NCBI GenBank assembly: GCA_964387845.1
Contig: CAYLXA010000004.1
Coordinates: 128,001-192,000, forward strand
DNA: 64,000 bases
Origin: an uncultured bacterium
GTDB taxonomy: Bacteria > Omnitrophota > Omnitrophia > Omnitrophales > Abzuiibacteriaceae
Direction: 5' to 3'
In this document: positions 1 through 24,503 of the stretch, in pieces
Layout of the letters: each line of letters begins with the position of its first letter
How positions within the stretch are numbered: position 1 is the stretch's first letter
The notes under the pieces: model-generated
Told to the model about the DNA's origin: nothing
The model's input: only the letters and a program-made list of their open reading frames with translations
Databases searched by the model: none
Position numbers and translations under genes: made by a program

Positions 1-538
1 GATGGGCAAGCCATACGATTTTTTTGGGGTGGCGGACCAAATAGGCTGGAAATTTGGTTGCGATAACCGCGTCAACTCGTCTCCGGGTATTGATCCGCAC
101 TTTTAAAACAAGCCACAAAATAACATCGATGAGAGTGGACAGGCGGGAAGGGCCGAAACATTGGTGGGGAAAAGTGCACAATTCGGCTTTGAAGCCAGCT
201 TGGTTGAGGTGTAAAACCAGCGCTTCCGCAAGCTCCTCGGCGCCGCCCCGCACGGAAATGACCTGAGGATGAAGAACAACAACTCGAGGAGAGGATGGCC
301 CTGAAAATAATTCAAGATAATGAAGCCATGACTTGGGAAATTGAAAACGCGTCCACGCATTTGGATGAAGAAGTTGTGCCCATAAAAACCAGTAACGTAA
401 CCGGCAAAAGAAAAAAGAGTGTGATAATAGGCGAGTCAAAAGATTGGCAAAATGCCGCCGGTTCCCATCGCGTTGAGCGTTGCGCAATTCCGCTTCATAA
501 TCAATCAGTTCTGGATTTGAGCGGTGAAGTTCTGCCAT
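1..538 (-). CDS. hypothetical protein, 5' part only (ORF runs off left edge); possibly a GT-B glycosyltransferase N-terminal region
   Basis: Hand translation of the minus strand from ATG at 536-538 gives about 179 stop-free codons (MAELHRSNPELIDYEAELRNAQRDG...RVDAVIATKFPAYLVRHPKKIVWLAH) reaching position 1. It is absent from the ORF track because it has no stop inside the window. It sits beside the polysaccharide locus and no SD was seen. Confidence 0.35.
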   Translation of the reverse strand, partial: MAELHRSNPELIDYEAELRNAQRDGNRRHFANLLTRLLSHSFFFCRLRYWFLWAQLLHPNAWTRFQFPKSWLHYLELFSGPSSPRVVVLHPQVISVRGGAEELAEALVLHLNQAGFKAELCTFPHQCFGPSRLSTLIDVILWLVLKVRINTRRRVDAVIATKFPAYLVRHPKKIVWLAH

Positions 539-602: not shown

Positions 603-1649
603 TTAATTTTTACAAAAAAAATTAAACCGATTTTTAAAATTTGAATATATTTTGTTAACCTTTGCAAAAATCCGCGCTTTTATTCCCATGTTTTCAATAC
701 GGTTTTTCATGTATTCTACATGAGTTTTGAGATTTTTCAGATGCAGGAAGTAGTATTGAGTTGTTCCAATCAACGTTAGAAGCTCTATTTCATCCGGGAC
801 AGGTGATTTATTTTCCGGAAGTATTCTACCCCTCTCGTTCGCGGTTAACCATTTCAACAAATCCTGATCGAAGTCGCGGGCCTCAATTAAATCCGGGTTC
901 ACTTTTTTCGATCGGTAGAAGTTTTTCTCAATTACTTGGCTGCTTTTCTGAATATCGTGATTCGTTTTAATGCCCTCATTATTTAAGAATGTGTCTATTT
1001 TTTGGGCGCTCGCTTCAGCGTTTTGCAAAAGTTCATGATGATTCATGATCAGGCATGGCAATCCTTGGGCAACTTGGAGTGCCGAGCGCAAACAAATAGA
1101 CCAGAGCCGAAATGAGAATTTGTGCGGAATTAAAGAGGTCTTATTAAGCGAATCACCAAATTCAACAGGGTCTCGCCAGAGCAAGATGCAAACAGGTTCA
1201 AAATATTTCTGCCACACTGGCAAGGTAAAAGAAAAACGTGCATCTTTAATTGCTATCGGTGCTTTGATGCTGCTAAACATATTTTGAATTTTTTTAATCG
1301 GATCTAAGGCATTTTCAGAAAAGCTTTTACTGGGAGACACGGGGCCTCGGCAGGATGTCCAGCCCCAGTCTTTTGTTGCCGAATCAATTTCTTCATTCGT
1401 CATTCCGATTTGTTGGAATAATTGAGAAAGGGTATTTGGAAGCGATTCGTGAATGATGGTTTCGTTTATTTCAAGGACCGAATTTAATTCAAAATATCCT
1501 CTCGGATTATGCACATCTCCCTTTTTTAATTGATCAGTATCGCCCAAGGAAATACCCAAGCCTGTTAGCACTTCCATGAGCGCGGATGAGCCGCTTCGGG
1601 GCAAGCCCAAAACAAAGATTATTTTTTGCTTTTGACCCGATGTATTCAT
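603..1649 (-). CDS. sulfotransferase family protein
   Basis: The N-terminal P-loop-like PAPS 5'-phosphosulfate motif (KIIFVLGLPRSGSS) and a downstream RDP motif (LLWRDPVE) are typical of bacterial Sulfotransfer-family enzymes. 348 aa with no predicted TM segment. Confidence 0.75.
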   Translation of the reverse strand: MNTSGQKQKIIFVLGLPRSGSSALMEVLTGLGISLGDTDQLKKGDVHNPRGYFELNSVLEINETIIHESLPNTLSQLFQQIGMTNEEIDSATKDWGWTSCRGPVSPSKSFSENALDPIKKIQNMFSSIKAPIAIKDARFSFTLPVWQKYFEPVCILLWRDPVEFGDSLNKTSLIPHKFSFRLWSICLRSALQVAQGLPCLIMNHHELLQNAEASAQKIDTFLNNEGIKTNHDIQKSSQVIEKNFYRSKKVNPDLIEARDFDQDLLKWLTANERGRILPENKSPVPDEIELLTLIGTTQYYFLHLKNLKTHVEYMKNRIENMGIKARIFAKVNKIYSNFKNRFNFFCKN

Positions 1650-1652
1650 TTT

Positions 1653-2777
1653 TTAAATCAGGCCTTTCAATCTTAACTCTTGAGTTGCAATGCCAAATCT
1701 GTCATCCGCCTTTTGAGATTGAGACCATTCAATAAGCTCTTGCATTCCCCGCGCAAAGTTCCAAGCCGGTTTAAAACCGAGCGTTTTCGTGATTTTTGAG
1801 ATATCGGAAAAACAGTGGCGAATATCGCCAGGCCGGAATTTCTTGGTGATTTCAGGGTCAATATTTTTACCCAGAAGGTTGGAAAGTTGCTGCGCGATTT
1901 CAAGAACAGAAATAGCTTTTCCGGTCCCGACATTGAAGGGCTGATAGTCAGCTTTGCTGCTTTCCAGCGCCAGGAGATTGGCGTTTGCAATGTCGTGGAC
2001 CGATACGAAATCGCGGGTCTGCAAACCGTCCTCGTAAATCACAGGGCGATTGCCATTTTTAAGACGGCTCAAAAAAATTGCAGCGACACCGGTGTAAGGA
2101 TTTGACAATGACTGGCGGGGGCCGTAAACATTGAAATAGCGAAGCGCTACCGCCGGAATTTTGTAGGTTTGGCCAATATTGAGAACCATTTCTTCCTGCG
2201 CTTTTTTTGTGAGCGCATAAATTGACGTGCAATCAAACGGTTTAGATTCAGATGTTCCAATCGGCTTGAGATTGCCCCCGCATTTTTGGCAAGGGACCTC
2301 CCAATTTCCAGATGTCATCGCTTTGTCGTCGCGGGCACCAGCAACGGCAGGGCCGCATTTGGGGCATTGGTAAGCTCCTTCGCCGTAGCAGCTCATAGAG
2401 CTCGCGACAATTATTTTTCTGATTCTGTCCCGATACTGATTGACGATTAAATCGAGCAGGTTGGCGGTTCCGCCAATATTAACATCGGTATAATGTTTGA
2501 CCTGATATTGAGATTGGCCGACACCTACCGCAGCAGCCTGATGGCATACAGCATCAATGCCGGCCAGTGCTTTTTTGAGCGATTCCGTGTCGTCAATATT
2601 ACCGCGGACATATTCAGCATTTGTATTGGCCCAGGCGGGCAGTTCCCCCGAATTGTGAACTTGAGGATCCAGATTGTCTAAAACTCTGACGTGGTAGCCC
2701 TTTGAAACCAAAAGGTCAACTATATGAGATCCAATAAAACCGCATCCGCCTGTTATTAGTATGTTTTTAACCGCCAC
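1653..2777 (-). CDS. NAD-dependent epimerase/dehydratase (extended SDR) with Cys4 zinc-ribbon insertion
   Basis: A Rossmann GxxGxxG (ILITGGCGFIGSHIV) and catalytic YxxxK (YALTK) are present. A roughly 40-aa insert CPKCG...CQKCGG lies between the Ser and YxxxK regions. Confidence 0.8.
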   Translation of the reverse strand: MAVKNILITGGCGFIGSHIVDLLVSKGYHVRVLDNLDPQVHNSGELPAWANTNAEYVRGNIDDTESLKKALAGIDAVCHQAAAVGVGQSQYQVKHYTDVNIGGTANLLDLIVNQYRDRIRKIIVASSMSCYGEGAYQCPKCGPAVAGARDDKAMTSGNWEVPCQKCGGNLKPIGTSESKPFDCTSIYALTKKAQEEMVLNIGQTYKIPAVALRYFNVYGPRQSLSNPYTGVAAIFLSRLKNGNRPVIYEDGLQTRDFVSVHDIANANLLALESSKADYQPFNVGTGKAISVLEIAQQLSNLLGKNIDPEITKKFRPGDIRHCFSDISKITKTLGFKPAWNFARGMQELIEWSQSQKADDRFGIATQELRLKGLI

Positions 2778-2789
2778 AGAGCCCCGCTT

Positions 2790-3830
2790 CTAGTGTTTGA
2801 ATAATCGGCGATTTTGATGTGCCCAGTCCACCAAACGTCCCACGCCCGTTTCGGGAGAAACGGATGGCTGCCAACCGATTAGTTTTTTAGCTTGTTGAAT
2901 GTTCGAAATGTATACTTTTTGGTCTGATGGACGCCAGTCGGAGAAGCGGATTTTGAGCCGGCCGGTTTTGGTTTGAAGCAAATCAAGCAATTCCAACAGC
3001 GAGAGCGTGAATTTAGAGCCTCCGCCGATGTTTAAAACCACGTGACGCTGCTTGCTTTTTAAAAACAAATCGTAGGCATGAATCAAATCGTCTACCCAAA
3101 GCACGTCGCGCACCTGCTTGCCGTTTCCATAAATAGTAATCGGCTGGCCGGTGAGCGCAGCAATGGCGAACCAGGATACCCAGCCCTGATCCTCAACGCC
3201 GAACTGCCGGGTTCCGTAAATACACGACATTCGGAAAACGCCGACTTTAAGTCCGTAAAGCCGCGCATAATCCTGCGCGTAAAGATCGGCTGTCAACTTT
3301 GAACATCCATAAGGCGTATGCTTGCACAAATCAACACCAAAATTTTCAGGGACGCCGTTTCGAAATTTCCCCGAGAAAACATAGCGGGTTTTTAGCTCCT
3401 TTATTCCGATCGTATTCACATTCTCGCCATATACTTTATTGGTCGAGCAAACCACGACAGCAGGTTTTGATTTGGATTGACGCGCTGCCTCCAGGACATG
3501 GAATGTGCCTGTGGCATTTACCCGAAAATCGGTGATCGGATCGAGGACAGATGAGGTGACGGCAGTTTGTCCTGCTGTATGAATAATGGCATCCGCATTT
3601 CTTGCAAGAGACTTAACGGTATCAAAATCTAAAATACTGCCTCGAACTCGTTTGATATTGGAAAACCGCGATAAATATTCCCAATTATAAGCAGCGCCCG
3701 TTTTTTTCTTTTTCATCAATTTTTCGCGTGAAAGATTATCGAGAGCTACGACAGAATGCTTTCTTTTTGCGTAATATTCGCACACGTGGCTTCCGACAAA
3801 TCCGCTGCCGCCTGTTACCAGAATTTTCAT
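2790..3830 (-). CDS. NAD-dependent epimerase/dehydratase (CDP-paratose 2-epimerase/Tyv-like SDR)
   Basis: MKILVTGGSGFVGSH...LDNLSR are Rossmann motifs. The start is placed at the internal ATG (MKIL) at 3830, abutting the upstream gene, because the 14-codon N-terminal extension of the track ORF lacks support. Confidence 0.75.
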   Translation of the reverse strand: MKILVTGGSGFVGSHVCEYYAKRKHSVVALDNLSREKLMKKKKTGAAYNWEYLSRFSNIKRVRGSILDFDTVKSLARNADAIIHTAGQTAVTSSVLDPITDFRVNATGTFHVLEAARQSKSKPAVVVCSTNKVYGENVNTIGIKELKTRYVFSGKFRNGVPENFGVDLCKHTPYGCSKLTADLYAQDYARLYGLKVGVFRMSCIYGTRQFGVEDQGWVSWFAIAALTGQPITIYGNGKQVRDVLWVDDLIHAYDLFLKSKQRHVVLNIGGGSKFTLSLLELLDLLQTKTGRLKIRFSDWRPSDQKVYISNIQQAKKLIGWQPSVSPETGVGRLVDWAHQNRRLFKH

Positions 3831-4597
3831 TTGGCTTCCTTCATTTTCTGAAAATTTGCATAAGCAGCACAAGTCGTTTCAATTGAGTTGTCCATAACTA
3901 ATTTCCCATTTTGAATTAAAAGCCCGCGCTTACAGTGTTTCTTTAGTTGTTCAGCCGAATGGGAAATTAAAATCAGCGTTCTGCCGGATTTTTTGATTTC
4001 CTCAAACTTGGCGTGGCATTTAGACTGAAAATGCTGGTCGCCGACTGCTAAAATTTCATCTGCAAGCAGAATATCAAAATTGGAATGAATGGCAACCGAA
4101 AAACCAAGCCGGACGTACATGCCGGAGGAATATTGCTTGATCGGGGAGTCTATGAATTGTTCGAGTTCTGAAAAAGCTACGATCTCGTCAATTTTTTGGG
4201 TAATTTCTTGTTTGGACATGCCAAGGATGACGCCATTTAAGAAAACATTCTCGCGTCCCGTCAGTTCCGGATGAAAACCGGCACCCACTTCAATCAAAGG
4301 CGCAATCCGCGCCGCCGCTAATACTTTTCCGCGCGTCGGTTTTGTTACATTGGCGATTAATTTCAGCACCGTTGTTTTTCCGGCACCGTTGGGGCCTAAA
4401 ATTCCGACCGATTCGCCCGGTTGAACGGCAAACGAAACATCACGGAGAGCAAAGAACCTCTCGTCCCGGACCGGGTTCCCGAGCAAGGTTTTCCACGCCC
4501 GGTCAATCCACCGGTTCATGCTGGTAGAAAGCGCCGAAAAGTTTTCACGCCTCAAACGATATTCTTTATCTACATGGTCAAATGTAATGACGGCCAT
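3827..4597 (-). CDS. ABC transporter ATP-binding protein, polysaccharide/O-antigen-type exporter (Wzt/TagH-like)
   Basis: Walker A GPNGAGKTT, an ABC signature (YSSGM) and Walker B LLADE are present. The start codon overlaps the stop of the Wzm-like permease. Confidence 0.8.
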   Translation of the reverse strand: MAVITFDHVDKEYRLRRENFSALSTSMNRWIDRAWKTLLGNPVRDERFFALRDVSFAVQPGESVGILGPNGAGKTTVLKLIANVTKPTRGKVLAAARIAPLIEVGAGFHPELTGRENVFLNGVILGMSKQEITQKIDEIVAFSELEQFIDSPIKQYSSGMYVRLGFSVAIHSNFDILLADEILAVGDQHFQSKCHAKFEEIKKSGRTLILISHSAEQLKKHCKRGLLIQNGKLVMDNSIETTCAAYANFQKMKEAK

Positions 4598-5379
4598 TAG
4601 ACGTAGTCCGCAAAATGAGGTTCTAGTTTTTTAAAAATCAAATAAGCCGCAACGAAGATGATCACGGAAATTACGGCCGAAACCGCCAAAAAATACCAAT
4701 TCGGCTCAATGCCGCGGACCAAAACACAGCGATAACCGTGAACGATGCCGGCCATCGGGTTCAAAATCAGAATTTGCTGCAAGTGCGGGCGGATATTTTC
4801 CAGCGGATAAATCACCGGCGTTGCGAACATCCAAATTTGCACGATATTGGCCAAAGCATTTCGCACATCGCGATAGAAAACATTAAGCGATGCAAACAGC
4901 AGTGTAATTGCAATTGTTAATAGAAGCTGCAGGCAACAAATGAACGGAAGTAAAAAAATCCATCCCGAAATTTGAATTTTGAAAACAAACATCAGCGCAG
5001 CAAGCAGGATAAATGAAATCAAGAAATCAAAAAAGCAGGCCAAAATGGACACGAGAGGGAAAATCACTCTGGGAAAATAAATTTTCCGGACCAGATCGCC
5101 ATTGGAGACGATGCTTGGAATCGCGGTAGTCAATGAATTGGCGAAAAACATCCATGGAATAAATCCGGCCAGAAAGAATACGGGATAAGGAATGTCGCCT
5201 GTGGGCATTTTGACAATTTTGGTGAATATTGCGGTGAATAAAATCACCATGACGGCGGGCTGGAACAGTGCCCACAGAATACCGAGAGCAGACTGTTTAT
5301 AACGGACCTTAATTTCGCGTCCGGTTAACAGTTCGATTAACTCCCGATATCGAACGATGTCTTTTGCTAAATGAAGCAT
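4597..5379 (-). CDS. ABC-2 type transporter permease (Wzm-like)
   Basis: A 260-aa protein with six hydrophobic segments, typical ABC-2 architecture, translationally coupled to the ATPase. Confidence 0.8.
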   Translation of the reverse strand: MLHLAKDIVRYRELIELLTGREIKVRYKQSALGILWALFQPAVMVILFTAIFTKIVKMPTGDIPYPVFFLAGFIPWMFFANSLTTAIPSIVSNGDLVRKIYFPRVIFPLVSILACFFDFLISFILLAALMFVFKIQISGWIFLLPFICCLQLLLTIAITLLFASLNVFYRDVRNALANIVQIWMFATPVIYPLENIRPHLQQILILNPMAGIVHGYRCVLVRGIEPNWYFLAVSAVISVIIFVAAYLIFKKLEPHFADYV

Positions 5380-5380
5380 A

Positions 5381-6526
5381 TTAATTTAACGCAGATTTTA
5401 GAATTGCCGACAAATCCCGGCTAAGGCAATTCAGGTTCGCATTTTGCTGATAAATTTGGTAGCCTTTTTCAGCTATTTTATCGGCAAGTTTGGGGTCGTT
5501 TTTCAAGGTAATAATCGCATGCGCAAGCTCCCCGGCATCGCCCGGGGTGACAAAATAAATGCTATCCATGTCGGTCAGCAGTTCTTCAACAGCTTTGGCG
5601 CGTCCCGTGACGACCGGTTTTTTGACGGCGAGAGCTTCGAAAATTTTATTCGGAATTACGCGGTTGCGTTTTTCTGAAGTTCCAAAAACGCCCAGGCATA
5701 AGTCGCTTTCCTGCAGCAGAGAAGGGACCTGGGCATAATCCATCCAGCCCCGAAGGCGCACATTGGCCATGTTGAGCTCTTTCACCTTTGCCTGCATTTC
5801 GTAGTAAAGCTGGCCGGTTCCGACAAGGTCAAAAGTAATATCGCGCTCTGTTTCCAATATTTTTGCCGCACCCAATATGACGTCGACGCCATGGAACGGC
5901 GTAAATTTCCCGCAGAAAACGACTCGGTAAAATTGGTCACGGCGTTTTGGCGCCGAAGGTTGAAATAGAGTGTCGTCAGCACCGATCCACAGCCGCGCGA
6001 AACGCTTTTCGGGAATCTGGAAATTATGCGAAAAATAGTCTATATGCTGCCGAGTATCCAAAATAATTTTATTGGCAAATTTGCAAGCAGTTTGATCAAT
6101 TTCCCGAATCAGTGCGGCAAACAGCGATTTTTCCGAGATGAGTTTTCGGTCGTTCACGATTGTATCGTATAAAGAAATGAAAGCGTCAAATACGATCCTC
6201 TTGCGGCGCAGAAACGTCAGCCATTTAACGGCTAGAACGTCGAGATGGCCCGGAAAGCCGATCAGCACCAAATCATGATTTTGGATAAACAGGTACCGCC
6301 ACATCAATTGAAGATTGGTAATCAAGATCTTAACGATCCGCCGAATCATTTTCCAGATACTTTTAAACTCTCCGGTTTTATGTTCTTCCGAATCCCATAA
6401 AGGTGCGTGGCACTCGATCACTTCGATTTGAGCTGCTTGCATGGTTTTCAGGAGTGTCTGATTTCGGGGATAATTTCGCTCGTAAGTCCCAAAAAAACAA
6501 ACGCGCATATTATTCCGATTCTTCAA
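5381..6526 (-). CDS. glycosyltransferase family 4 (GT-B, retaining)
   Basis: A 381-aa protein with a C-terminal GT1/GT4-like region (E..G.PVV..R motif neighbourhood). The start may instead be the second Met (MRVCFFG, about 6508). Confidence 0.7.
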   Translation of the reverse strand: MKNRNNMRVCFFGTYERNYPRNQTLLKTMQAAQIEVIECHAPLWDSEEHKTGEFKSIWKMIRRIVKILITNLQLMWRYLFIQNHDLVLIGFPGHLDVLAVKWLTFLRRKRIVFDAFISLYDTIVNDRKLISEKSLFAALIREIDQTACKFANKIILDTRQHIDYFSHNFQIPEKRFARLWIGADDTLFQPSAPKRRDQFYRVVFCGKFTPFHGVDVILGAAKILETERDITFDLVGTGQLYYEMQAKVKELNMANVRLRGWMDYAQVPSLLQESDLCLGVFGTSEKRNRVIPNKIFEALAVKKPVVTGRAKAVEELLTDMDSIYFVTPGDAGELAHAIITLKNDPKLADKIAEKGYQIYQQNANLNCLSRDLSAILKSALN

Positions 6527-7448
6527 GAACCGAATACTCGATTTCGCTCTTTTTTTGGCCGAGCGTGATCATTTCTGCCAATAGCCCAGTCGAGAAAAAT
6601 TGAATGCCGACAATGGTCAGCAAAACACCGAGGAAAAGAAGCGGATAGCGGCTTTGGATATTGCCGTAAACAACACGCAAATAGAAAATGTAGTAGTTAA
6701 TCGAAAGGCCGAGAATGGTTAGAGTCAAGCCGATGGTTCCGAAAAAGTGGGATGGTTTTTTAGTGAACCTTGTCAAAAAAGTAACGGTCAATAAGTCCAA
6801 AAGGCCGTGAATGATGCGCTCGGAGCCGTACCGCGACCTTCCGTATTTGCGCGGGCGGTGATTGACCTTAATTTCGGCAATCCTGAAGCCGCGCTGAGCC
6901 GCAAGCAAGGGAATGTAGCGGTGAAGTTCGCCGTAAATATGCAGTTCCTTCGTGACAGCTTTCCGATATGCTTTGAAGCCGCAATTAAAATCATGAATCC
7001 GGATACCGCTGACTTGCGAAGTGATCATGTTGTAAATTCTTGACATCACGACTCTTAAGGCCGGATCTTTGCGCCTGTGTTTCCAGCCGGAAACCACATC
7101 GAAACCTTCATTGATTTTTTCAATCATGTTTGAAATTTCAGCCGGGTCATCTTGCAGGTCGCCGTCCATCGTAATCACGATGTCGCCAATGGCGGCTTTA
7201 AAGCCGGCCGAAAGCGCAGCGGCTTTTCCGAAACGGGTGCGTAGGCGAATCCATTTGATATTGGAATCTTTCTGGCGCGCCTGCCGGATGGCGTCGATCG
7301 TTGCGTCTTTACTGCCGTCATCGATAAAAATAATTTCGTATGACGATCGAAGCGGTTGAAGGACTGTGCGAATTTCACCAGCAAGTTCAGGAATGCTGGC
7401 GGCTTCGTTGTGGACCGGAACAATAATCGATAAATTGAGTGATTTCAT
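6510..7448 (-). CDS. GT2 polyprenyl-phosphate sugar synthase (GtrB/ArnC/DPM1-like) with C-terminal TM helices
   Basis: SIIVPVHNE...FIDDGSKD...DGDLQDDP (DXD) are GT-A motifs, and there are two C-terminal TM segments. The start is set at MKSLNLSII (ATG at 7448) rather than the longer track ORF. Confidence 0.8.
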   Translation of the reverse strand: MKSLNLSIIVPVHNEAASIPELAGEIRTVLQPLRSSYEIIFIDDGSKDATIDAIRQARQKDSNIKWIRLRTRFGKAAALSAGFKAAIGDIVITMDGDLQDDPAEISNMIEKINEGFDVVSGWKHRRKDPALRVVMSRIYNMITSQVSGIRIHDFNCGFKAYRKAVTKELHIYGELHRYIPLLAAQRGFRIAEIKVNHRPRKYGRSRYGSERIIHGLLDLLTVTFLTRFTKKPSHFFGTIGLTLTILGLSINYYIFYLRVVYGNIQSRYPLLFLGVLLTIVGIQFFSTGLLAEMITLGQKKSEIEYSVLEESE

Positions 7449-7501
7449 ATGCTGACGGTTTCCTTTATATATCGGCTCAATTTGACGATGATAAAGCAGG
7501 T

Positions 7502-8905
7502 ATGGCGAACATTTTAAGTGAAAAAAAGCTTTCCGGAAAGTTGATTCTTGCACTCATTTTTACGGCTTGCGCCTTGCTCGTGCGGTTTGGCGGTTTGACG
7601 GAACGCCCGGTTTGGTATGACGAAGCCATCACGATTTTTAACGCCCAATCGAGTTTTGAAAGCATTTGGCAGCGGTTTGCCCACGGCAGCAATCCGCCGT
7701 TTGCTTATTTTTTTTATCACGTCTGGCAGAATTTATTCGGCACATCACAACTCAGTTATGAACTTGTATCCGTTGTTTTTGGCACGCTATCGGTTTTCTT
7801 GATTTTCAAAACTGGAAAGCTTCTGTTTGATACCGAAACCGGACTGATTGCCGCCGTCCTGATCGCTTTTTCGTCCTATCATGTCTTTGTTTCGCAGCAA
7901 ATCCGCGGCTACGCGATGGCCTGTTTTTTTGCCTTGTTGTCGATTTATGCTTTGTTCAAATTTTTTAAGTTTTCAAAGCAGCGGGATTTTGTCTTGTGGC
8001 TTGTCTCCGCGGTTTTGATGATGTCGACCCATTTTTATACCGGCTTTCTTTTTGCGGTTGAGGTTTTGGCGTGGCGCATTGCATCAAGCAAGGTTAAGAA
8101 CGGTATTTTATTCTACGCTTGCGGCGGTGCGCTTATTCTATTGGCTGCCATTGCCGGCATTCAGCTCATCCGGATTTTAAACATTTTTCCGTTTTATCCC
8201 CGGCCGCACGCCAGGCTTGGTGATTTAATGCTGGTCTTGCAGAGTGTTTTCTTTTTATCAAAACCGCTTGTGATTGCGTCGGTGCTGCTGGTGATTTGGC
8301 GTTTCAAAGATTTTCGCGGTAACGGCCGGCTTCAGTTTTTGCTGGCATGGTTTGCGGTTTCGCTGGCGGTTCCTTTTGCGATTTCAAGATTTGTGCCGTC
8401 ATTTTTTTACGTACGCTATTACATTTTTACGCATTTGGCGTGGGTTTTGATGACGGCCTTTGCAATCCGTCAAATTCCGCGCGGTACGGTCCGGCTTCTT
8501 GCGGTTGCGGCGTTTGTATTTTTCCTAAGCTTTATGATTGCGGATTATTATCAAGAATCGCGCGAAAAATCAAAGTTTAAAACCGCCATTGAAATGATTG
8601 CCCAAGACTACCGGGAAGGTGACGTAATCGTGCATGAAAACGGCTGGACATTCGGGACTTCTTATTATTATCACAGCGGGAAATTGCCTGAATTTTATTT
8701 GACTGATGAATTTGCGGTGCCGACGCTTGAGCGCTTTAAGATTTCGCCCGAAAAAATCCAAAACTACAAGCGCATGTGGCTTGTCCTGGAGCGGCCCGAA
8801 AGCGTTCCGATTATTGAGTCTTTTCCGTGGTATCAAAATCTGCTAAAACAGATGGTGAAACAGATGCCGGAATTTCAGCTCTATCTGTTTGATTTAAACA
8901 GGTAA
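7502..8905 (+). CDS. GT-C family membrane glycosyltransferase (ArnT/PMT-like, GT39/GT83-type)
   Basis: An N-terminal multi-TM region with a DE motif in the first loop (WYDEAI) and a C-terminal soluble domain. It is divergent from the GtrB-like gene. The start is chosen at MANIL (7502) because the 7439 start would overlap the divergent gene. Confidence 0.7.
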   Translation: MANILSEKKLSGKLILALIFTACALLVRFGGLTERPVWYDEAITIFNAQSSFESIWQRFAHGSNPPFAYFFYHVWQNLFGTSQLSYELVSVVFGTLSVFLIFKTGKLLFDTETGLIAAVLIAFSSYHVFVSQQIRGYAMACFFALLSIYALFKFFKFSKQRDFVLWLVSAVLMMSTHFYTGFLFAVEVLAWRIASSKVKNGILFYACGGALILLAAIAGIQLIRILNIFPFYPRPHARLGDLMLVLQSVFFLSKPLVIASVLLVIWRFKDFRGNGRLQFLLAWFAVSLAVPFAISRFVPSFFYVRYYIFTHLAWVLMTAFAIRQIPRGTVRLLAVAAFVFFLSFMIADYYQESREKSKFKTAIEMIAQDYREGDVIVHENGWTFGTSYYYHSGKLPEFYLTDEFAVPTLERFKISPEKIQNYKRMWLVLERPESVPIIESFPWYQNLLKQMVKQMPEFQLYLFDLNR

Positions 8906-11849: not shown

Positions 11850-13076
11850 ATGAAAGTAGTCTCCATTATCTTAGGCGGAGGCCAAGGAAAAAGGCTCTTT
11901 CCGCTTACGCGCGATCGTTCAAAACCTGCTGTCCCAATCGGAGGCAAATACCGCCTCGTTGATATTCCAATCAGTAATTCATTGCATTCAGGAATTAAGC
12001 AAATCTTTGTTTTGACCCAGTTTAATTCCTCCTCGCTCAATAACCACATACTCAATACCTATAAGTTTGATTATTTCAGCCGCGCATCGGTTGCTCTTTT
12101 GGCGGCCGAACAAACACTATCGAGCGCGCAATGGTTCCAAGGGACGGCCGACGCGGTTCGTTGTCACATTCCGCATTATCATTTGGAGCCGGAAGATGAA
12201 GTTTTGATTCTCTCGGGCGATCATTTGTACCGGATGGATTATCAGCCACTGATCGACTTCCACCGCAAAAATCAAGCGGATGTAACGATCTGCACAACCG
12301 GTGTTACCGCGAAGGAAACATTTCATTTCGGGATTTTAAAATCGGACGATTCCGGAAAGATTACGGATTTTGTAGAGAAACCCGCAACCCCTCACGAGCG
12401 AAAAGGTTTTGAAGGGCCGGGAGGGCTTTATTTGGCATCAATGGGTATTTATCTCTTTAAAGCAAAAGCCCTCATCGATGTTTTGGCCGGCACGGAAAAA
12501 GATTTTGGAAAAGAAGTGATTCCGAAGTCGCTTAAAACTTACCGGTCGTTTGCCTTCCTGTTTCAGGATTATTGGCGTGACATCGGAACGATGAGCAGTT
12601 TTTATGAGGCCAATCTTGCGCTGACGCAGCCGAATCCCGAATTTAGTTTTCATGATAAAAAGGGCAATTTTATTTTTACCCATCCAAGATTTTTACCGCC
12701 GTCCGAAATCACAAAATGCAATATCGAAAATGCGCTGATTACCGAAGGCTGTCTAGTAAAGCAAGCTAAAATTCACGACTCAGTCATAGGTTTGCGGACC
12801 TGTATCGGGAAAGACGTGACGGTTTCACGCTCCATTATCATGGGTGCGGATGTTTATGACCAGCATGAGAGAAAATCAAAGTCGGTTCCGATCGGCATCG
12901 GTCAGGGGAGTGTGATTGAGAACGCGATTGTTGATAAAAATGCGAGAATCGGGAAAAAAGTCATTATTCGAAACGATAAGAAAATTGATTCGCTGGACGG
13001 CGATGGTTATTACATTCGAGAGAGTATCGTTATTATTCCCAAGAATGCAGTGATCGAGGATAATACCGTAATTTAA
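11850..13076 (+). CDS. glgC: glucose-1-phosphate adenylyltransferase
   Basis: N-terminal GGGQGKRLFPLT...PAVP is the ADP-glucose pyrophosphorylase signature, and a C-terminal left-handed beta-helix region is present. Confidence 0.9.
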   Translation: MKVVSIILGGGQGKRLFPLTRDRSKPAVPIGGKYRLVDIPISNSLHSGIKQIFVLTQFNSSSLNNHILNTYKFDYFSRASVALLAAEQTLSSAQWFQGTADAVRCHIPHYHLEPEDEVLILSGDHLYRMDYQPLIDFHRKNQADVTICTTGVTAKETFHFGILKSDDSGKITDFVEKPATPHERKGFEGPGGLYLASMGIYLFKAKALIDVLAGTEKDFGKEVIPKSLKTYRSFAFLFQDYWRDIGTMSSFYEANLALTQPNPEFSFHDKKGNFIFTHPRFLPPSEITKCNIENALITEGCLVKQAKIHDSVIGLRTCIGKDVTVSRSIIMGADVYDQHERKSKSVPIGIGQGSVIENAIVDKNARIGKKVIIRNDKKIDSLDGDGYYIRESIVIIPKNAVIEDNTVI

Positions 13077-13096
13077 AAGCATAGCGAAGGGACGCG

Positions 13097-13744
13097 ATGT
13101 CAAATCAAATCCGGAAAATCGTAACAGGATGTTTTATTGTGGCATGTTTGGCTGGTGTTGTGTTTGCGGTGCGCGCCGGTAAAACCAGTCAAGCCGAAAA
13201 ACCGATCAATCCGCGCGCAGAAAAAATCAAAGGCCCACCGGATGCCCCGATTATGCTTTTGGAATTCAGTGATTTTCAGTGCCCGTCCTGCGCGTATGCG
13301 CAAGCCTCTGTCAAAAAACTGATGGATAAATTTCCGGAAATGATTCAAGTTCACGCGTATCATTTTCCGCTTGCGATGCATCGTTACGGAATGGATGCTT
13401 CGATTGCGGCTGAATGTGCGGCGGCACAAAAAGTTTTCTGGCCGTATCACGATAAAATATTTGAAGCGCAGAAAGCATGGTCGTCTGACCCCGATGCGCG
13501 GACGCTCTTTCTGGCTTATGCCAATGAAATGGATATGGACCGCGAAGCATTTAAGTCGTGTTTTATGGATCCCGAAACGCGGCGTAAGGTGGAAGCTGAC
13601 CGTGATGCGGGGATTAAGCTTCAAGTGAGTTCAACGCCCACATTTTTTATCGGGGAAGACCGGCTGGTCGGCGCCAAACAACTCGAAGAGCAGGGCCCGC
13701 AAATCATTCAAAAGAAATTAGAATCATTCGTGCAGAAAAAGTAA
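13097..13744 (+). CDS. DsbA-family thiol:disulfide oxidoreductase (thioredoxin fold, CPSC active site)
   Basis: An N-terminal TM/signal anchor and a CPSC motif in DFQCPSCAY. Confidence 0.75.
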   Translation: MSNQIRKIVTGCFIVACLAGVVFAVRAGKTSQAEKPINPRAEKIKGPPDAPIMLLEFSDFQCPSCAYAQASVKKLMDKFPEMIQVHAYHFPLAMHRYGMDASIAAECAAAQKVFWPYHDKIFEAQKAWSSDPDARTLFLAYANEMDMDREAFKSCFMDPETRRKVEADRDAGIKLQVSSTPTFFIGEDRLVGAKQLEEQGPQIIQKKLESFVQKK

Positions 13745-13750
13745 TCGAAG

Positions 13751-14200
13751 GTGCGCCAGATGCCGAATTTTCTGATTTTCATTTTTAGAGTTTTGTTAGG
13801 CGCAGTTTTTATTTATTCCGGTTTCCACAAGCTCATCCGCCCCATTCAAGAGTTTCAATATTCACTGGAACAGTATCAAGCATTTCCTGCGTGGTCGTAT
13901 TCCCTCATTGCTTATTCGGTTCCTTGGGCAGAGCTGGTCTTGGGTGCTTTTTTGGTATTGGGTTATTGGCGTAAAACCGTAGCACATCTGCTTGCGCTGA
14001 TGACGCTTTCGTTTATAGTCTTGCTGGCATCGACCATCGTGCGCGGTTTGAATTTGGCGAATTGCGGATGCTTCGGCGATGCCATTCACCTAACACCGCC
14101 GCAAACAATCGGAATTGATTCATGCTTATTAATTCTTCTTCTTGTGGTTGCTCGGGCTCAAAAAACCCCGTTTGAGCTGGATACGTGGATGGAGAAGTGA
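13751..14200 (+). CDS. MauE/DoxX-family membrane protein
   Basis: Four TM segments and an NCGCFGD motif. It sits immediately downstream of the DsbA-like gene. Confidence 0.65.
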   Translation: MRQMPNFLIFIFRVLLGAVFIYSGFHKLIRPIQEFQYSLEQYQAFPAWSYSLIAYSVPWAELVLGAFLVLGYWRKTVAHLLALMTLSFIVLLASTIVRGLNLANCGCFGDAIHLTPPQTIGIDSCLLILLLVVARAQKTPFELDTWMEK

Positions 14201-14214
14201 GGGTTGGGTAAAAA

Positions 14215-14287
14215 TGGCCAGAGACGGAATCGAACCGCCGACGCAGGGATTTTCAGTCCCTCGCTCTACCGACTGAGCTATCTGGCC
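14215..14287 (-). tRNA. tRNA-Phe (GAA)
   Basis: A cloverleaf is readable: ggccaga acceptor stem, anticodon loop ctGAAaa, TPsiC arm ggttcgattcc. 73 nt. Confidence 0.9.
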
Positions 14288-14346
14288 GAGATTCTGATGA
14301 TTATCTAAAATTTAAATAGAAATGCAAGCGGAATATTGTTAATTTT

Positions 14347-15306
14347 ATGAAATATGTAATCGGCATCGATATCGGCGGCACCAAAATTTCTCTTGCCCTC
14401 GCCAACCGTTCCGGAAAAATTCTTCACCGCGTGAAGTTTAAAACCAAAAAAGGGCCCGGTACGCGCAAATCGATTCAGGATATTGTTCATTTTGTGGCCG
14501 GGTTGCTGCTTTATCGGAAAATCAAACGCGGGCAGCTGCTCGGGATCGGGATCGGCGTTCCGGGGCCCGTGAATCCGGCAAAACAGAAAATAGAGCGTTC
14601 TCCCAATTTGCCGGGCTGGGACAAAGTTCCGCTTAAAAAAATTCTCGAAAAGCAATTTAAGTGCAGGGTTTTTATTGAGAATGACGCGAATGCGGCAGCG
14701 CTCGGCGAAAAGCATTTCGGTGCCGGAAAAGGAGTCTCCAATTTCATTTACGTGACCGTGAGTACGGGGGTCGGCTGCGGTATTGTTATGAATGGAAAGT
14801 TGGTCGCGGGCGATGCCGGTTCAGCCGGCGAAATCGGACACATGACCATCGTCACGAACGGCGAACTTTGCGGCTGCGGAAAGAGAGGCTGCTTGGAAGC
14901 GTATGCGAGCGGTACAGCAATTGCCAAATATGCGGCAAAGCAGCTTAGAACAAGTCGTCAGTCAATGATTCCGAAATTTTGTGAAGAAAAAGGGGTCATT
15001 ACGGGTCAGGCAGTGTCGCTGGCCGCACTTCACGGAGATAAGCTCGCCATGCAAGTTCGGCGCCGCGCTGCCGATTATCTGGGTGTCGGTCTTGCAAGCG
15101 TGATGAATTTACTCAACCCGAAGCGGATTATTTTGGGGGGCGGTGTGCTCGAATCTACCGCGCATTTTTGGCAGCCCATGATGGCTGCCGTTAAAAGAGA
15201 AGCATGGAAAATTCCGTTTAAGTCTTGTAAGATCGTGAAGACAAAACTTCGCCGCGTAGGCGATTTGGGCGCGGTTGCTGTGGTGCTGGAACGGGGCAGA
15301 AAATAA
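14347..15306 (+). CDS. ROK family glucokinase
   Basis: N-terminal IGIDIGGTK, a ROK signature and a CxCGxxGC zinc motif (CGCGKRGC). Confidence 0.8.
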   Translation: MKYVIGIDIGGTKISLALANRSGKILHRVKFKTKKGPGTRKSIQDIVHFVAGLLLYRKIKRGQLLGIGIGVPGPVNPAKQKIERSPNLPGWDKVPLKKILEKQFKCRVFIENDANAAALGEKHFGAGKGVSNFIYVTVSTGVGCGIVMNGKLVAGDAGSAGEIGHMTIVTNGELCGCGKRGCLEAYASGTAIAKYAAKQLRTSRQSMIPKFCEEKGVITGQAVSLAALHGDKLAMQVRRRAADYLGVGLASVMNLLNPKRIILGGGVLESTAHFWQPMMAAVKREAWKIPFKSCKIVKTKLRRVGDLGAVAVVLERGRK

Positions 15307-15317
15307 TAGAAAGTGCC

Positions 15318-15391
15318 GCGCTCGTAGCTCAATTGGATAGAGCATCAGTCTTCGGAACTGAGGGTTACGTGTTCAAGTCACGTCGAGCGCA
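15318..15391 (+). tRNA. tRNA-Arg (TCG)
   Basis: Acceptor stem gcgctcg / cgagcgc, anticodon loop ctTCGga, T arm gttcaagtc. 74 nt. Confidence 0.85.
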
Positions 15392-15412
15392 AAATTTTAC
15401 TAGAAACGATAA

Positions 15413-16264
15413 ATGAACCAAACTTTTAAGAAAATCCTATCATTTATTTTGATCGCTTCAATGCTCGGCGGCTGCTCATCTTTTGGTAACCGGAAACTTT
15501 CATCAGAAGCGGGAATTGCCTCACAGGATGCCGAAGAAATTGCGATCGGCCGTCAGATTCACGAATCAATTATTGCCCGGATGCCCGTTTATCAAAACGA
15601 AACGGTCAATGCTTATATCCGAACGCTCGGCCAAAGCCTGATTCCGTATGTGCGCCGCAAAAACTTGCCCTATCATTTTAGTGTTTTAAGTGATGACAGA
15701 ATTTTTGCAACATCAGCGCCGGGCGGCTACGTTTATATCACGACCGGGTTTGTCCGGTTCGTCGACAACGAAGCCGAATTGGCGGCTGTGTTGGCGCATG
15801 AGATGGGCGAACTGCAGCGGCGCGACCCCAAACTTTCGCAAGCGATCAAATTGCTTGAAAAGACCATTGCTGCGTCGTCCGTGGTAGCTCCGGTTTTTGG
15901 GAGCATCGGCGCGCTGGCAATGCTGGGCCTTGTCGGCGTTCATTCTATGGTTTCTAACGAACCCAATAAGACGTCAAGGCTGGAGGAAGCCGATGAGCTG
16001 GCGCTTGAGTTTTTGTGGAAGGCGGGACATGACCCACAGGGGTTGATCGATGTCTATTACAAGATCATTGAAGCATCGCCGCAAGACCTGATGTATTTGT
16101 TTGATTATCAACAATCGCGCACGGTTACCATGACGCGCCTGTTGCATGCTGAGAGTTTATTCTCGAAGATGGAAGTCGGGCAAAAAGCGTTTGATGCCCG
16201 CCGCGACCAATTTTTATTAATGACACAAACCCTGCGCGAACAAGTTCCGCAAGTATCAACTTAG
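15413..16264 (+). CDS. M48 family metallopeptidase, lipoprotein
   Basis: A lipobox (LGGCSS) and an HExxH motif (LAHEMGELQ). Confidence 0.75.
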   Translation: MNQTFKKILSFILIASMLGGCSSFGNRKLSSEAGIASQDAEEIAIGRQIHESIIARMPVYQNETVNAYIRTLGQSLIPYVRRKNLPYHFSVLSDDRIFATSAPGGYVYITTGFVRFVDNEAELAAVLAHEMGELQRRDPKLSQAIKLLEKTIAASSVVAPVFGSIGALAMLGLVGVHSMVSNEPNKTSRLEEADELALEFLWKAGHDPQGLIDVYYKIIEASPQDLMYLFDYQQSRTVTMTRLLHAESLFSKMEVGQKAFDARRDQFLLMTQTLREQVPQVST

Positions 16265-16271
16265 GAGAGTC

Positions 16272-17990: not shown

Positions 17991-18003
17991 CGGGAGTTTT
18001 CGT

Positions 18004-18900: not shown

Positions 18901-18905
18901 TCCTG

Positions 18906-24491: not shown

Positions 24492-24503
24492 ACTTTCGGT
24501 ATC

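Follow-up and report, generated by a model that had tools for sequence, protein, structure and literature searches.

A candidate locus for a sulfated, Wzm/Wzt-exported cell-surface glycan in Candidatus Omnitrophota, with a sulfotransferase of possible chain-terminating type

Gene content and layout of the locus

The DNA analysed here (the window) is a 64-kb stretch from a Candidatus Omnitrophota MAG that carries, at its start, eight minus-strand genes packed tightly together (gaps of -4 to 64 bp) and, upstream of this operon and divergently oriented, a GT-C gene (Table 1). From the first gene on, the minus-strand genes encode an ArnC/GtrB-like GT2, a GT4, Wzm, Wzt, a CDP-tyvelose-2-epimerase-like SDR, a GalE-like SDR, the sulfotransferase and another GT4, the successive gaps being 1, 1, -1, -4, 12, 3, and 64 bp. 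All eight complete genes lie where an earlier note on this DNA had placed them, each with a significant family match, and an exact look-up found the starts of GT4a, GT2, GT-C and the CDP-tyvelose-2-epimerase-like SDR identical to the public gene calls. That note had counted nine genes at 603-8905; the gene content stands, but the ninth, an edge-truncated and possibly glycosyltransferase-like ORF, lies just outside this span, and the locus is larger. The ORF is the N-terminus of a GT4, which is whole on contig L001 (5859-7145; Pfam Glycos_transf_1, 1e-32), where the operon continues beyond the window edge with two additional GT4 genes downstream (441 and 371 aa), followed by a convergent LOG-family gene, which brings the minus-strand operon to 10 genes, to which the divergent GT-C gene is added. 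Promoter-like and terminator-like matches did not exceed the frequency seen in shuffled sequence, with no promoter match above chance in the GT2/GT-C intergenic region, and, given the small gaps, one transcription unit is the simplest reading: the genes form a single tight unit and not the independently transcribed, unrelated units that had been considered. No initiating phosphoglycosyltransferase, ligase, or flippase for a lipid-linked monosaccharide is encoded in the locus.

Table 1. Features at the start of the window
Feature	Coordinates	Strand	Basis
GT4b, first 179 codons of the gene for a 428-aa GT4; directly downstream of the sulfotransferase gene and truncated at the edge of the window	1..538	-	
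Sulfotransferase, 348 aa	603..1649	-	family profile, AF2 model, motifs
GalE/WbpP-like NAD-dependent sugar-nucleotide 4-epimerase-type SDR, 374 aa	1653..2777	-	Pfam Epimerase, PDB matches
CDP-tyvelose-2-epimerase-like SDR, 346 aa	2790..3830	-	full-length PDB matches
Wzt-type ABC transporter ATPase, 256 aa	3827..4597	-	Pfam ABC_tran
Wzm-type ABC-2 permease, 260 aa	4597..5379	-	Pfam ABC2_membrane
GT4a, GT4 family (GT-B) glycosyltransferase, 375 aa	5381..6508	-	Pfam
GT2 polyprenyl-phosphate glycosyltransferase, 312 aa, first gene of the operon	6510..7448	-	PDB matches
Divergent intergenic region, 53 bp, between the GT2 and GT-C start codons	7449..7501	.	gene starts
GT-C fold glycosyltransferase, 467 aa, PMT_2/ArnT-like family	7502..8905	+	Pfam PMT_2

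The assignments of the nucleotide-sugar, chain-building and export genes agree with those made earlier. One SDR matches, over its full length, two CDP-tyvelose 2-epimerases (9rl0, 8.8e-80, and 1orr, 1e-67; next PDB match, 2e-36), and is thus a probable sugar-nucleotide C2-epimerase. The other, with a Pfam Epimerase match split in two stretches (1.3e-47) and 6dnt (1e-46), 6wjb, 4zrm, and WbpP as best PDB matches, carries a CxxC...CxxC insertion at aa 138-166. GT4a matches Pfam Glyco_trans_1_4 (3e-19) and Glycos_transf_1 (2e-17) and is 42% identical to its counterpart in a syntenic Omnitrophota locus, L005. Wzm matches Pfam ABC2_membrane (4.5e-16), its best NCBIfam models being galactan Wzm/RfbD and KpsM, and has five hydrophobic helices in a strict hydropathy scan. 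The adjacent Wzt has ABC_tran as its sole Pfam match, with neither Wzt_C nor another carbohydrate-binding module (CBM), and its best NCBIfam models (TagH, galactan Wzt/RfbE) both score under their cut-offs; the equally short Wzt of L005, 68% identical, also lacks a CBM.

The GT2, which was expected to carry C-terminal membrane helices, does so (one passes the strict scan, the second is read from sequence), and from its PDB matches to ArnC (2.3e-51), GtrB (sll0501; 7.8e-33), and Dol-P-Man synthase (8e-18) it is classed as an ArnC/GtrB/DPM1-like polyprenyl-phosphate glycosyltransferase; its score with the NCBIfam ArnC model is 192 bits (cut-off 529). The divergent GT-C call is likewise borne out, by a PMT_2 match of 52.3 bits (cut-off 26.1) and at least eight hydrophobic helices, the first of which is closely followed by a DE pair (aa 40-41), while no relative of solved structure was detectable by sequence. 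The divergent GT-C/GT2 arrangement beside GT4-wzm-wzt is kept in L005, where the GT-C ortholog is intact (471 aa), with 47% identity for GT-C and 62% for GT2.

The sulfotransferase and its relatives

The sulfotransferase was at first the weakest of the assignments. By itself, the protein scores 17.6 bits with Pfam Sulfotransfer_3 (cut-off 27), over the N-terminal loop only, and has no NCBIfam match and no match in a PDB sequence search, so that profile and structure evidence were needed. A family profile searched against the PDB retrieved sulfotransferases only, and the AF2 model (pLDDT 87.7, pTM 0.85) has the corresponding fold. Among 96 relatives, the 5'-PSB loop PRSGSS, K135, and R159...S167 are invariant or nearly so; K135, the lysine of the KDxR motif, corresponds in the alignment to that of NKDP in TPST, and the pair R159...S167 to the 3'-PB R...S motif of the CurM ST domain and TPST. 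Judged by profile, model and alignment, the proposed PAPS-type sulfotransferase now holds, its PAPS-binding residues being present and not, as the earlier note had allowed for, lacking. From its sequence, the protein is predicted to be cytoplasmic, with no signal peptide or transmembrane helix and a catalytic domain of approximately aa 1-275, followed by a tail of two long helices (aa 286-320 and 326-347), ending in a cationic amphipathic helix. This tail is short, about 60 residues, and is modelled, as a monomer, with pLDDT of 65-84.

The protein belongs to a large, unstudied family, of 5047 representatives at 50% clustering, and the link of this family to wzm-wzt and to fusions with coiled coils and glycosyltransferases is family-wide. 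Wzm-wzt genes are present in 9 of 14 distinct related loci, and in all nine the gene directly after wzt encodes a sulfotransferase domain; thus the earlier statement that sulfotransferases are uncommon in such loci does not stand. The Wzt carries a Wzt_C module in seven of these nine; the remaining five of the 14 have no wzm-wzt within the flanks covered. All 13 non-window loci compared for this are of glycan type, with GT genes. In the window, two SDR genes separate wzt from the sulfotransferase gene, an arrangement in which the relatives differ: in L005, the gene directly after wzt encodes a 744-aa protein (P0015) that combines a sulfotransferase domain and a GT4 domain. Fusions to GT domains are found in many relatives, and six of the seven large ones consist of an N-terminal sulfotransferase, a spacer, and then GT2 and/or GT4 modules, the spacer being an obvious long coiled coil in three. 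In locus L023, a CBM-less Wzt is directly followed by a protein made of a sulfotransferase, a coiled coil, a GT2 and a GT4, indicating that the CBM is not required for the coiled-coil architecture. SAM methyltransferases are adjacent or fused in three loci (L007, L009, L018). As to the supply of PAPS, cysC, cysDN, and cysQ were not found among the annotated genes of the window; in one relative an APS kinase gene lies directly behind the sulfotransferase gene, and in two others a CysQ-like Inositol_P gene lies at the end of the locus, neighbours that speak for the sulfotransferase assignment.

Roles of the sulfate and of the GT2/GT-C pair

We propose, with a probability of roughly 0.45, that this is a chromosomal locus for a sulfated cell-surface glycan made by the Wzm/Wzt ABC-transporter-dependent route, and that its sulfotransferase is of a terminator type, a sulfate cap stopping chain growth. 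The two SDRs, a CDP-tyvelose-2-epimerase-like C2-epimerase and a GalE-like 4-epimerase, would tailor nucleotide sugars, from which four GT4 enzymes would assemble a chain linked to a polyprenyl carrier on the cytoplasmic side of the inner membrane. The sulfotransferase, tethered to the membrane through the amphipathic helix at its C-terminus, would pass sulfate from PAPS onto the lipid-linked chain as it grows, placing it on the non-reducing terminal sugar and so stopping elongation, and the CBM-less Wzm/Wzt would export the chain. The GT2 would make a polyprenyl-phosphate monosaccharide, used in the periplasm by the GT-C, most likely for adding a side residue to the exported glycan. Within this scheme we infer which sugars are involved, which acceptor receives the sulfate and where, what the GT-C acts upon, and that PAPS is available.

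Known terminators are the methyltransferase/kinase WbdD and the Kdo-transferase domain of WbbB, and the Wzt_C module recognises chain caps. It is the position after wzt, the CBM-bearing Wzt proteins, and the fusions of sulfotransferase, coiled coil and GT modules that make us lean toward a chain-stopping cap; a characteristic marker of polymerase-terminator systems is a coiled coil whose distal end bears the terminating enzyme (PMC11231755). The window protein, with its catalytic domain, helices and cationic amphipathic end, appears as a small version of this layout, in which, given the short tail, a coiled-coil ruler is no more than possible. The earlier note had proposed a plain decorating sulfotransferase; the gene set for a sulfated, ABC-exported glycan remains, but the context seen across the family favours an enzyme of the chain-terminator type, which had not been considered. 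Against this, the caps described are methyl, methyl-phosphate, and Kdo, with sulfate not among them (PMC9445017), and a literature search found no published link between sulfotransferases and WbdD-type termination. The two SDR genes between wzt and the sulfotransferase gene, the lack of PAPS-synthesis genes among those annotated in the window, the missing initiating phosphoglycosyltransferase, ligase and flippase genes, and the sulfate-free published O-antigen structure of Aeromonas salmonicida (PMC4483657) also count against the scheme.

It is also possible, although we consider it somewhat doubtful, that the pathway is the same and the sulfotransferase is an ordinary decorator, sulfating one residue per repeat unit at the cytoplasmic face, with chain length set by the balance of polymerisation and export via the CBM-less Wzm/Wzt, as modelled for Klebsiella O2a (PMC3560663). 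Counting against a cap, the Wzt proteins of both the window and L005 lack a CBM, and the published scheme assigns such transporters to the cap-independent class (PMC9445017); yet L023 has such a Wzt together with the coiled-coil architecture. The sulfation described for the marine capsules of Cobetia and Vibrio is of residues within repeat units (PMC11766843, PMC11641403), and the short helical tail of the window protein and the five loci without wzm-wzt in the flanks covered also suit a decorator. However, a decorator would have no obvious use for the long coiled-coil spacer that relatives have before their polymerising GT modules, and the constant place directly after wzt, with mostly CBM-bearing Wzt, in related loci fits a cap better.

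A separate question, independent of where the sulfate goes, concerns the GT2/GT-C pair, which we infer to decorate the locus polymer because the genes are linked to it and their synteny is conserved. Some members of the PMT_2 family act on lipid A and others on proteins, and the GT2 matches best to ArnC, an enzyme of lipid A modification; the pair might thus be merely adjacent, delivering its sugar to lipid A (ArnC/ArnT-like) or protein (PMT-like). A GtrA-like flippase is absent from the locus, and an ArnT-like gene in the Aeromonas salmonicida O-antigen cluster could not be tied to the O-antigen structure (PMC4483657). We nevertheless consider this unlikely, as the GT2 gene opens the operon, with a gap of 1 bp to the GT4 gene behind it, L005 keeps the divergent arrangement beside GT4-wzm-wzt, the ArnC score falls well short of the equivalog cut-off, and no other arn genes were found nearby.

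That the sulfotransferase sits in the operon incidentally, being inactive or having a non-glycan substrate such as a lipid or a small molecule, seems very improbable: the sub-threshold Pfam score, the want of a characterised close homolog and of PAPS genes in the window, and nearest structural relatives that act on polyketide intermediates and protein tyrosine would allow for it, but every PAPS-binding residue and every candidate catalytic residue is conserved, and the GT-domain fusions of many relatives and the glycan type of the 13 non-window loci argue for a glycan. The tight placement of the gene, 3 bp and 64 bp from its neighbours within the operon, and the sulfotransferase-GT4 fusion of L005 are counted for action on the glycan of this locus.

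Comparison with known systems

With the solved PAPS sulfotransferases (the olefin-synthase and CurM ST domains, tyrosylprotein sulfotransferases, and heparan sulfate NDST/3-OST), the window protein shares the PRSGS(T/S) 5'-PSB loop, the KDP lysine and the R...S 3'-PB motif, at 13-20% sequence identity and with differing acceptors; unlike them, it contains some 70 additional residues inserted at aa 60-130 and ends in the helical tail. Periplasmic glycosylation pairs include the GtrB/GtrC, ArnC/ArnT, and streptococcal GacI/GacL types; the window has a GT2 with C-terminal membrane helices that resembles ArnC and GtrB, paired with a multi-pass GT-C with an acidic motif after its first helix, whereas GtrA, ArnE/F, or another flippase gene is missing from the locus.

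The wb(salmo) O-antigen cluster of A. salmonicida, compared by its description, has a nearly equal parts list, but its sulfotransferase-domain protein is of 216 aa, its Wzt is of 438 aa, and a WbbB homolog is present (PMC4483657). There, too, the sulfotransferase-domain gene adjoins wzt, yet the published O-antigen structure is free of sulfate, and the authors left this gene and the ArnT-like gene unexplained (PMC4483657). Cobetia marina KMM 1449 and Vibrio sp. KMM 8419 have ABC-transporter-dependent loci with sulfotransferase genes and chemically proven sulfated glycans, the sulfate sitting on a repeat-unit rhamnose (PMC11766843, PMC11641403). Those loci are, however, of the Kps type (group 3 capsule), with KpsSC priming, and carry cysNDC/cysQ, while the window locus is of the Wzm/Wzt type, with no PAPS genes nearby.

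The WbdD-WbdA-Wzm/Wzt system of E. coli O9a/O8 (equivalent to Klebsiella O3/O5) likewise assembles its glycan at the cytoplasmic face in an ABC-transporter-dependent manner, with a non-glycosyltransferase modifying enzyme encoded along with wzm-wzt, as it is, directly after wzt, in the nine related loci that have wzm-wzt. The catalytic domain in the window is a PAPS-type sulfotransferase in place of a kinase/methyltransferase, the helical region is only some 60 residues long, the Wzt lacks a CBM, and the cap is a prediction from the genes. Still, both proteins consist of an N-terminal catalytic domain, a helical region, and a C-terminal amphipathic helix, membrane-associated in WbdD (PMC11231755), and the methyltransferases fused or adjacent in several relatives echo WbdD. 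In WbbB (Klebsiella O12/Raoultella terrigena) and Klebsiella O7 ORF6, a single protein runs from a terminator at its N-terminus through a coiled coil to GT modules at its C-terminus, the terminator being a Kdo transferase or methyltransferase-kinase and not a sulfotransferase. While the sulfotransferase and GT4 of the window are separate genes, the same order of modifying domain, long coiled coil, GT2 and GT4 is found in relatives P0086, P0137, P0138, and others, and in the syntenic P0015 the sulfotransferase domain is fused to GT4.

Organization of the locus and its surroundings

The genes of the locus (table below) are closely packed on the minus strand, the gaps between them being, in order, 1, 1, -1, -4, 12, 3, and 64 bp, with wzm and wzt adjacent within the glycosyltransferase locus and overlapping by 1 bp, and the start codons used here are backed by exact look-up of the translated proteins. 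The gene annotation of the earlier note was right, each gene being found in its place with a match to its family. The edge-truncated ORF, then called only possibly glycosyltransferase-like, is a real GT4, though it falls just outside the range assigned to the locus. On L001, a 10.9-kb public contig overlapping the window end, GT4b is followed by two further GT4 genes (GT4c and GT4d) and then by a convergent gene of the LOG family, and the unit thus consists of ten genes plus the divergent GT-C gene.

Genes of the glycan locus, with window coordinates and the basis of each annotation
Product	Coordinates	Strand	Basis
GT2	6510-7448	-	ORF listing and family scans
GT4 (GT4a)	5381-6508	-	ORF listing and family scans
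Wzm	4597-5379	-	ABC2_membrane, 4.5e-16
Wzt, 256 aa	3827-4597	-	ABC_tran only (1.9e-20), without Wzt_C
SDR, CDP-tyvelose-2-epimerase-like (putative)	2790-3830	-	ORF listing, family scans, PDB matches
SDR, GalE/WbpP-like	1653-2777	-	ORF listing, family scans, PDB matches
Putative sulfotransferase, 348 aa	603-1649	-	Weak family scan; profile and motif evidence
GT-C, PMT_2 family	7502-8905	+ (divergent)	Pfam PMT_2
Edge ORF, N-terminus of GT4b	1-538	-	Complete 428-aa GT4 on L001

In a scan for promoters and terminators, promoter-like and terminator-like matches occurred at the level expected of shuffled sequence. The divergent start codons of the GT2 and GT-C genes are only 53 bp apart (7449-7501), with no consensus promoter match standing out, and with so short a spacer at least one promoter must lie within the adjoining coding sequence. 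For Wzt and Wzm, the best NCBIfam models are TagH, the galactan Wzt/Wzm, and KpsM, all under their equivalog cut-offs. The SDR encoded next to Wzt has full-length PDB matches to the CDP-tyvelose 2-epimerases 9rl0 (8.8e-80, 271 bits) and 1orr (1e-67, 232 bits), the next SDR subfamily scoring far lower, at 129 bits, and it is predicted to be CDP-tyvelose-2-epimerase-like. By its PDB matches, the second SDR resembles 4-epimerases of the GalE/WbpP type. It carries an insertion of approximately 40 residues (aa 138-166; 2280-2366, minus strand) with two CxxC pairs (C138, C141, C163, and C166), located between the Ser and the Tyr-x3-Lys catalytic regions and splitting the Pfam domain match, and this insertion looks like a zinc ribbon.

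The remainder of the window is housekeeping chromosome; among its genes are mlaEFD and those of an RND pump and its outer-membrane factor, and the cell is therefore diderm. All proteins of the locus, and even PurA, are singletons at 90% clustering, and the best PurA relatives that bear a name (66-77% identity) come without exception from Candidatus Omnitrophota MAGs. An Rfam search of the window returned five tRNAs only. Next to the glycan locus is a sugar-phosphate cluster (11850-21171) encoding a GlgC-like nucleotidyltransferase, a ROK kinase, a 572-aa protein that matches PGI only in part, a 6-phosphogluconate-dehydrogenase-like protein, Zwf, and Pgl. It is followed, at 21226-25514, by genes for an ABC ATPase, an 838-aa protein combining an ABC-2 permease with GldG-like ABC_transp_aux/DUF7088 domains, and a DUF4340 protein, a putative auxiliary ABC system of the gliding-motility type. 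A large serine recombinase with Resolvase, Recombinase, and Zn-ribbon domains is encoded at 45428-47149 (minus strand), its long ORF overlapping the start of a MiaB-like radical-SAM gene, and beyond it are the stretch of lowest GC content in the window (0.41-0.42) and a 317-aa ORF without a Pfam match (47426-48379); the entire region of 45428-50000 may be an integrated mobile element.

The sulfotransferase family and its genomic neighborhoods

When queried alone, the window sulfotransferase, whose catalytic domain covers approximately residues 1-275, scores 17.6 bits against Pfam Sulfotransfer_3 (cut-off 27), through the N-terminal loop only, and has no NCBIfam match; the PDB sequence search returned chance matches to Nmd4 only, a word-indexed homolog search returned the protein itself and three weak 205-aa sulfotransferases, and the single-sequence AlphaFold model was uninformative (pLDDT 33). 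As the word-indexed search was nearly empty, an exhaustive HMMER search was needed, and this recovered 5047 cluster representatives at E<=1e-3, 12 of these at E<=1e-30. A PDB search with a profile of 40 relatives matched sulfotransferases only (the CurM sulfotransferase, 6.8e-9, the olefin-synthase sulfotransferase, TPSTs, StaL, and cytosolic SULTs), and 32 of the 40 match Sulfotransfer_3 at E<0.01, the best at 1.3e-10, while the window protein stays below threshold; this model under-covers the subfamily.

The residues involved in PAPS binding are also recognizable. The 5'-PSB loop, which follows the first strand and has the pattern P-[KR]-[ST]-G-[ST]-[ST], is LPRSGSS at residues 16-22 (PRSGSS at 17-22), aligning with SPRSGST of the CurM sulfotransferase and MPRSGTT of TPST, and among 96 relatives the conservation of its residues R18, S19, G20, and S22 is 90% or higher. 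The 3'-phosphate-binding motif R-x7-S, at the canonical spacing of 8, is represented by R159, which is invariant, and S167, which is nearly so, aligned with RHPYSVIES of the CurM sulfotransferase and RDGRAVVHS of a tick TPST. K135 (KDxR), invariant in the family, falls on the lysine of NKDP in the alignment to TPST, and E54, in an invariant N-x2-G-x2-E motif, is a candidate for the catalytic base. The fold is that of a sulfotransferase, distinguishable from P-loop kinases. Taken together, the profile, the motifs, and the context argue against a protein devoid of PAPS-binding residues or an unrelated P-loop protein, and the sulfotransferase call of the earlier note stands.

As to the supply of PAPS, none of the annotated genes of the 64-kb window is cysC, cysDN, or cysQ (APS kinase, ATP sulfurylase, and CysQ). 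On an Acidimicrobiales contig (L021, 6001-7641), the sulfotransferase gene of this family has an APS kinase gene immediately behind it, an indirect support for PAPS dependence. A CysQ-like Inositol_P gene ends two of the wzm-wzt-sulfotransferase loci (L009, 15072-15863, and L018, 11071-11862).

A scan of the genome collection with the 10 closest sequences returned only two loci, both from Gammaproteobacteria MAGs, and a metagenome scan returned seven, including two duplicates (L012 of L004 and L014 of L003) and two weak matches. We examined 14 distinct loci encoding members of the family (L002, L003, L005, L006, L007, L009, L011, L013, L015, L018-L021, and L023). Nine of these have wzm-wzt within the fetched flank, and in every one of the nine wzt is immediately followed by a gene whose product contains a sulfotransferase-fold domain, so that, with 5047 cluster representatives in existence, the notion that sulfotransferases are uncommon in such loci, as held by the earlier note, is unsupported. 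In seven of the nine, Wzt possesses the C-terminal carbohydrate-binding module (CBM; Pfam Wzt_C), and SAM methyltransferases occur in three of these loci, either as a fusion with the sulfotransferase or beside it. Among seven large relatives scanned, six have a sulfotransferase at the N-terminus (aa 3-200), separated by a spacer from GT2 and/or GT4 modules (both in five), the spacer being an obvious long coiled coil in three proteins (P0086, P0137, and P0138). On a Desulfocicer niacini contig (L006, 7938-15389), wzm, wzt (with the CBM), and the sulfotransferase gene, in that order, are followed by a GT2 gene, two genes for TagF-like CDP-glycerol glycerophosphotransferases, and a cytidylyltransferase gene, which suggests that in this diderm the sulfotransferase is linked to a polyol-phosphate polymer resembling teichoic acid.

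The closest comparison is with L005, a syntenic locus of a related Omnitrophota, in which the proteins are 73% (GlgC), 64% (ZnuB), 68% (Wzm and Wzt), 62% (GT2), and 47% (GT-C) identical to those of the window, glgC and znuABC being syntenic next to the glycan locus there as well. The GT-C gene comes first and is followed by a divergent series of GT2, GT4a, wzm, wzt, a gene for a 744-aa fusion protein (P0015), and the counterparts of GT4c and GT4d. The fusion consists of a sulfotransferase of the present family in its N-terminal half and a GT4 in its C-terminal half, and it links the sulfotransferase in function to glycan synthesis. The GT domain of P0015 was considered as an ortholog of the window GT4b and rejected (BLASTP E = 0.002, over 110 residues only). 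L005 lacks the SDR pair, and its sulfotransferase domain shares no more than 30% identity with that of the window; the center of the locus thus varies between relatives in the manner of serotype loci. When window 603-3830 is set against L005 10001-12235, the flanking genes are 42-68% identical and the middle differs, with two SDRs, a stand-alone sulfotransferase, and GT4b in the former and the single sulfotransferase-GT4 fusion in the latter, which looks like a serotype-style cassette replacement. A low in GC content (0.43) covers the sulfotransferase end of the window. GT4b has an N-terminal extension of approximately 85 residues (window 1-538, minus strand; L001 5859-6110), rich in aromatic and basic residues and without a family match, ahead of the GT-B fold; because the L005 relative fuses a sulfotransferase to a GT4, this extension could serve to dock the tail of the sulfotransferase.

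Terminal cap versus repeat-unit decoration

O antigens, S-layer glycans, and teichoic-acid-like polymers are among the surface glycans made via ABC transporters, and a cap at the chain end controls the length and export of such glycans. The caps known are methyl, methyl-phosphate, and Kdo, recognized by the CBM of Wzt (PMC9445017). We propose, with a probability of roughly 0.4, that the large family of the window sulfotransferase acts as a chain terminator in ABC-transporter-dependent glycan assembly, the window locus being a variant without the CBM. In such a mechanism, the sugar at the non-reducing end would bear a sulfate ester, sometimes accompanied by methylation, as a new type of cap that would stop polymerization and, in the relatives whose Wzt has the CBM, would license export, while the Omnitrophota locus would represent the CBM-less version of the system. 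For the window sulfotransferase itself, placement of a terminal sulfate cap has, in our judgment, a little short of an even chance.

The main objection to the cap is that Wzt lacks the CBM in both the window and L005: Wzt_C, the mark of the cap-dependent subclass, has no Pfam match in the window protein or in the L005 Wzt (251 aa as called), and the published scheme places the CBM-less type in cap-independent export (PMC9445017). This objection is weakened by L023, a locus where a 240-aa Wzt without the CBM is directly followed by a 1773-aa sulfotransferase-coiled coil-GT2-GT4 protein, and a terminator-like architecture thus does occur without the CBM checkpoint. The same objection favors the foremost alternative, that the sulfotransferase decorates the repeat units internally, which we regard as a real, if lesser, possibility. 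Further cautions against the cap come from the short helical tail of the window protein, from the two SDR genes intervening between wzt and the sulfotransferase gene in the window, and from the sulfated capsules of Cobetia marina KMM 1449 and Vibrio sp. KMM 8419, in which the sulfate is inside the repeat units (PMC11766843, PMC11641403). Another caution comes from Aeromonas salmonicida, which has a sulfotransferase-domain gene adjoining wzt but, in its published O-antigen, no sulfate to go with it (PMC4483657); sulfate present only once, at the end of each chain, could nevertheless have escaped such analyses. The mechanism put forward by the earlier note, of a sulfated polymer built at the cytoplasmic face and then decorated in the periplasm via a lipid-linked monosaccharide, is reasonable and yet probably incomplete, as the terminator-type context, with the position after wzt and the fusions to coiled coils and GT modules, is absent from it.

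The periplasmic part of that mechanism relies on the GT2/GT-C pair. The PDB matches of GT2 are to ArnC (2.3e-51), GtrB (7.8e-33), and an archaeal Dol-P-Man synthase (DPMS; 8e-18), its match to the ArnC model being under the equivalog cut-off; it has a GT-A catalytic domain with a DxD motif (MDGDLQD), and C-terminal TM helices, of which one (aa 264-282) passes the strict threshold and a second (approximately aa 229-250) was read from the sequence. These features characterize it as a putative polyprenyl-phosphate glycosyltransferase, GtrB/ArnC/DPM1-like. GT-C scores 52.3 bits against PMT_2 (cut-off 26.1), with at least eight hydrophobic helices, and has the acidic motif WYDE (aa 38-41) just after helix 1, in the predicted first extracytoplasmic loop; WYDE is kept in the L005 ortholog. 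No gene is called for this ortholog; a pseudogene was considered and rejected, as the frame is open for 471 codons. The Gtr-type systems have three components (GtrA, GtrB, and GtrC), whereas the listed genes fill the window locus, with no extra small membrane ORF for a GtrA-like flippase between or beside them. The pair would be linked to the polymer of the locus through operon membership and conserved synteny, and it is unlikely to act on a different acceptor (lipid A or a protein, for instance). Far less probable still is a sulfotransferase that is inactive or acts on another substrate.

Significance and relation to polymerase-terminator systems

If the sulfate cap is real, then the sulfotransferase head would add a new cap chemistry to methyl, methyl-phosphate, and Kdo, in a family of thousands, the Wzt CBM would gain a charged ligand, and the orphan sulfotransferase genes of O-antigen clusters, such as that of A. 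salmonicida, could be explained; repeat-unit NMR easily misses one terminal sulfate per chain. It would also provide a first concrete prediction on the cell surface of the Omnitrophota, an uncultured phylum. If every repeat is decorated instead, the locus would still be a source of a polysaccharide sulfotransferase, a kind of enzyme in demand for the production of sulfated glycans.

The known systems closest to this proposal are those of the polymerase-terminator model, in which a coiled-coil ruler, described as the characteristic marker of these systems, bears the terminating enzyme at its distal end, and the C-terminus of WbdD is a membrane-associated amphipathic helix (PMC11231755). WbbB (O12) and ORF6 (O7) are single proteins with an N-terminal terminator, a coiled coil, and C-terminal GT modules, and some orthologs extend no further than the coiled coil (PMC11231755). 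Every one of these architectural features recurs in the sulfotransferase family, but with a different catalytic head. The window protein, for which the AF2 model predicts helices at aa 286-320 and 326-347 after the catalytic domain, with a computed hydrophobic moment of 0.57-0.58 and a net charge of +5 at aa 325-343, is, in that model, a small version of the terminator layout, and its L005 relative is fused directly to a GT4. Our literature search returned no paper joining a sulfotransferase and WbdD, and none linking a sulfotransferase to cap recognition by Wzt. The parts list is not new: sulfated ABC-exported capsules are already known, and the A. salmonicida O-antigen cluster has nearly the same parts list as the window locus and was left unexplained (PMC4483657). 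What appears undescribed is that this sulfotransferase family systematically occupies the terminator slot and has a terminator-like architecture, and the window locus is one CBM-less member of that variant, from an uncultured phylum.
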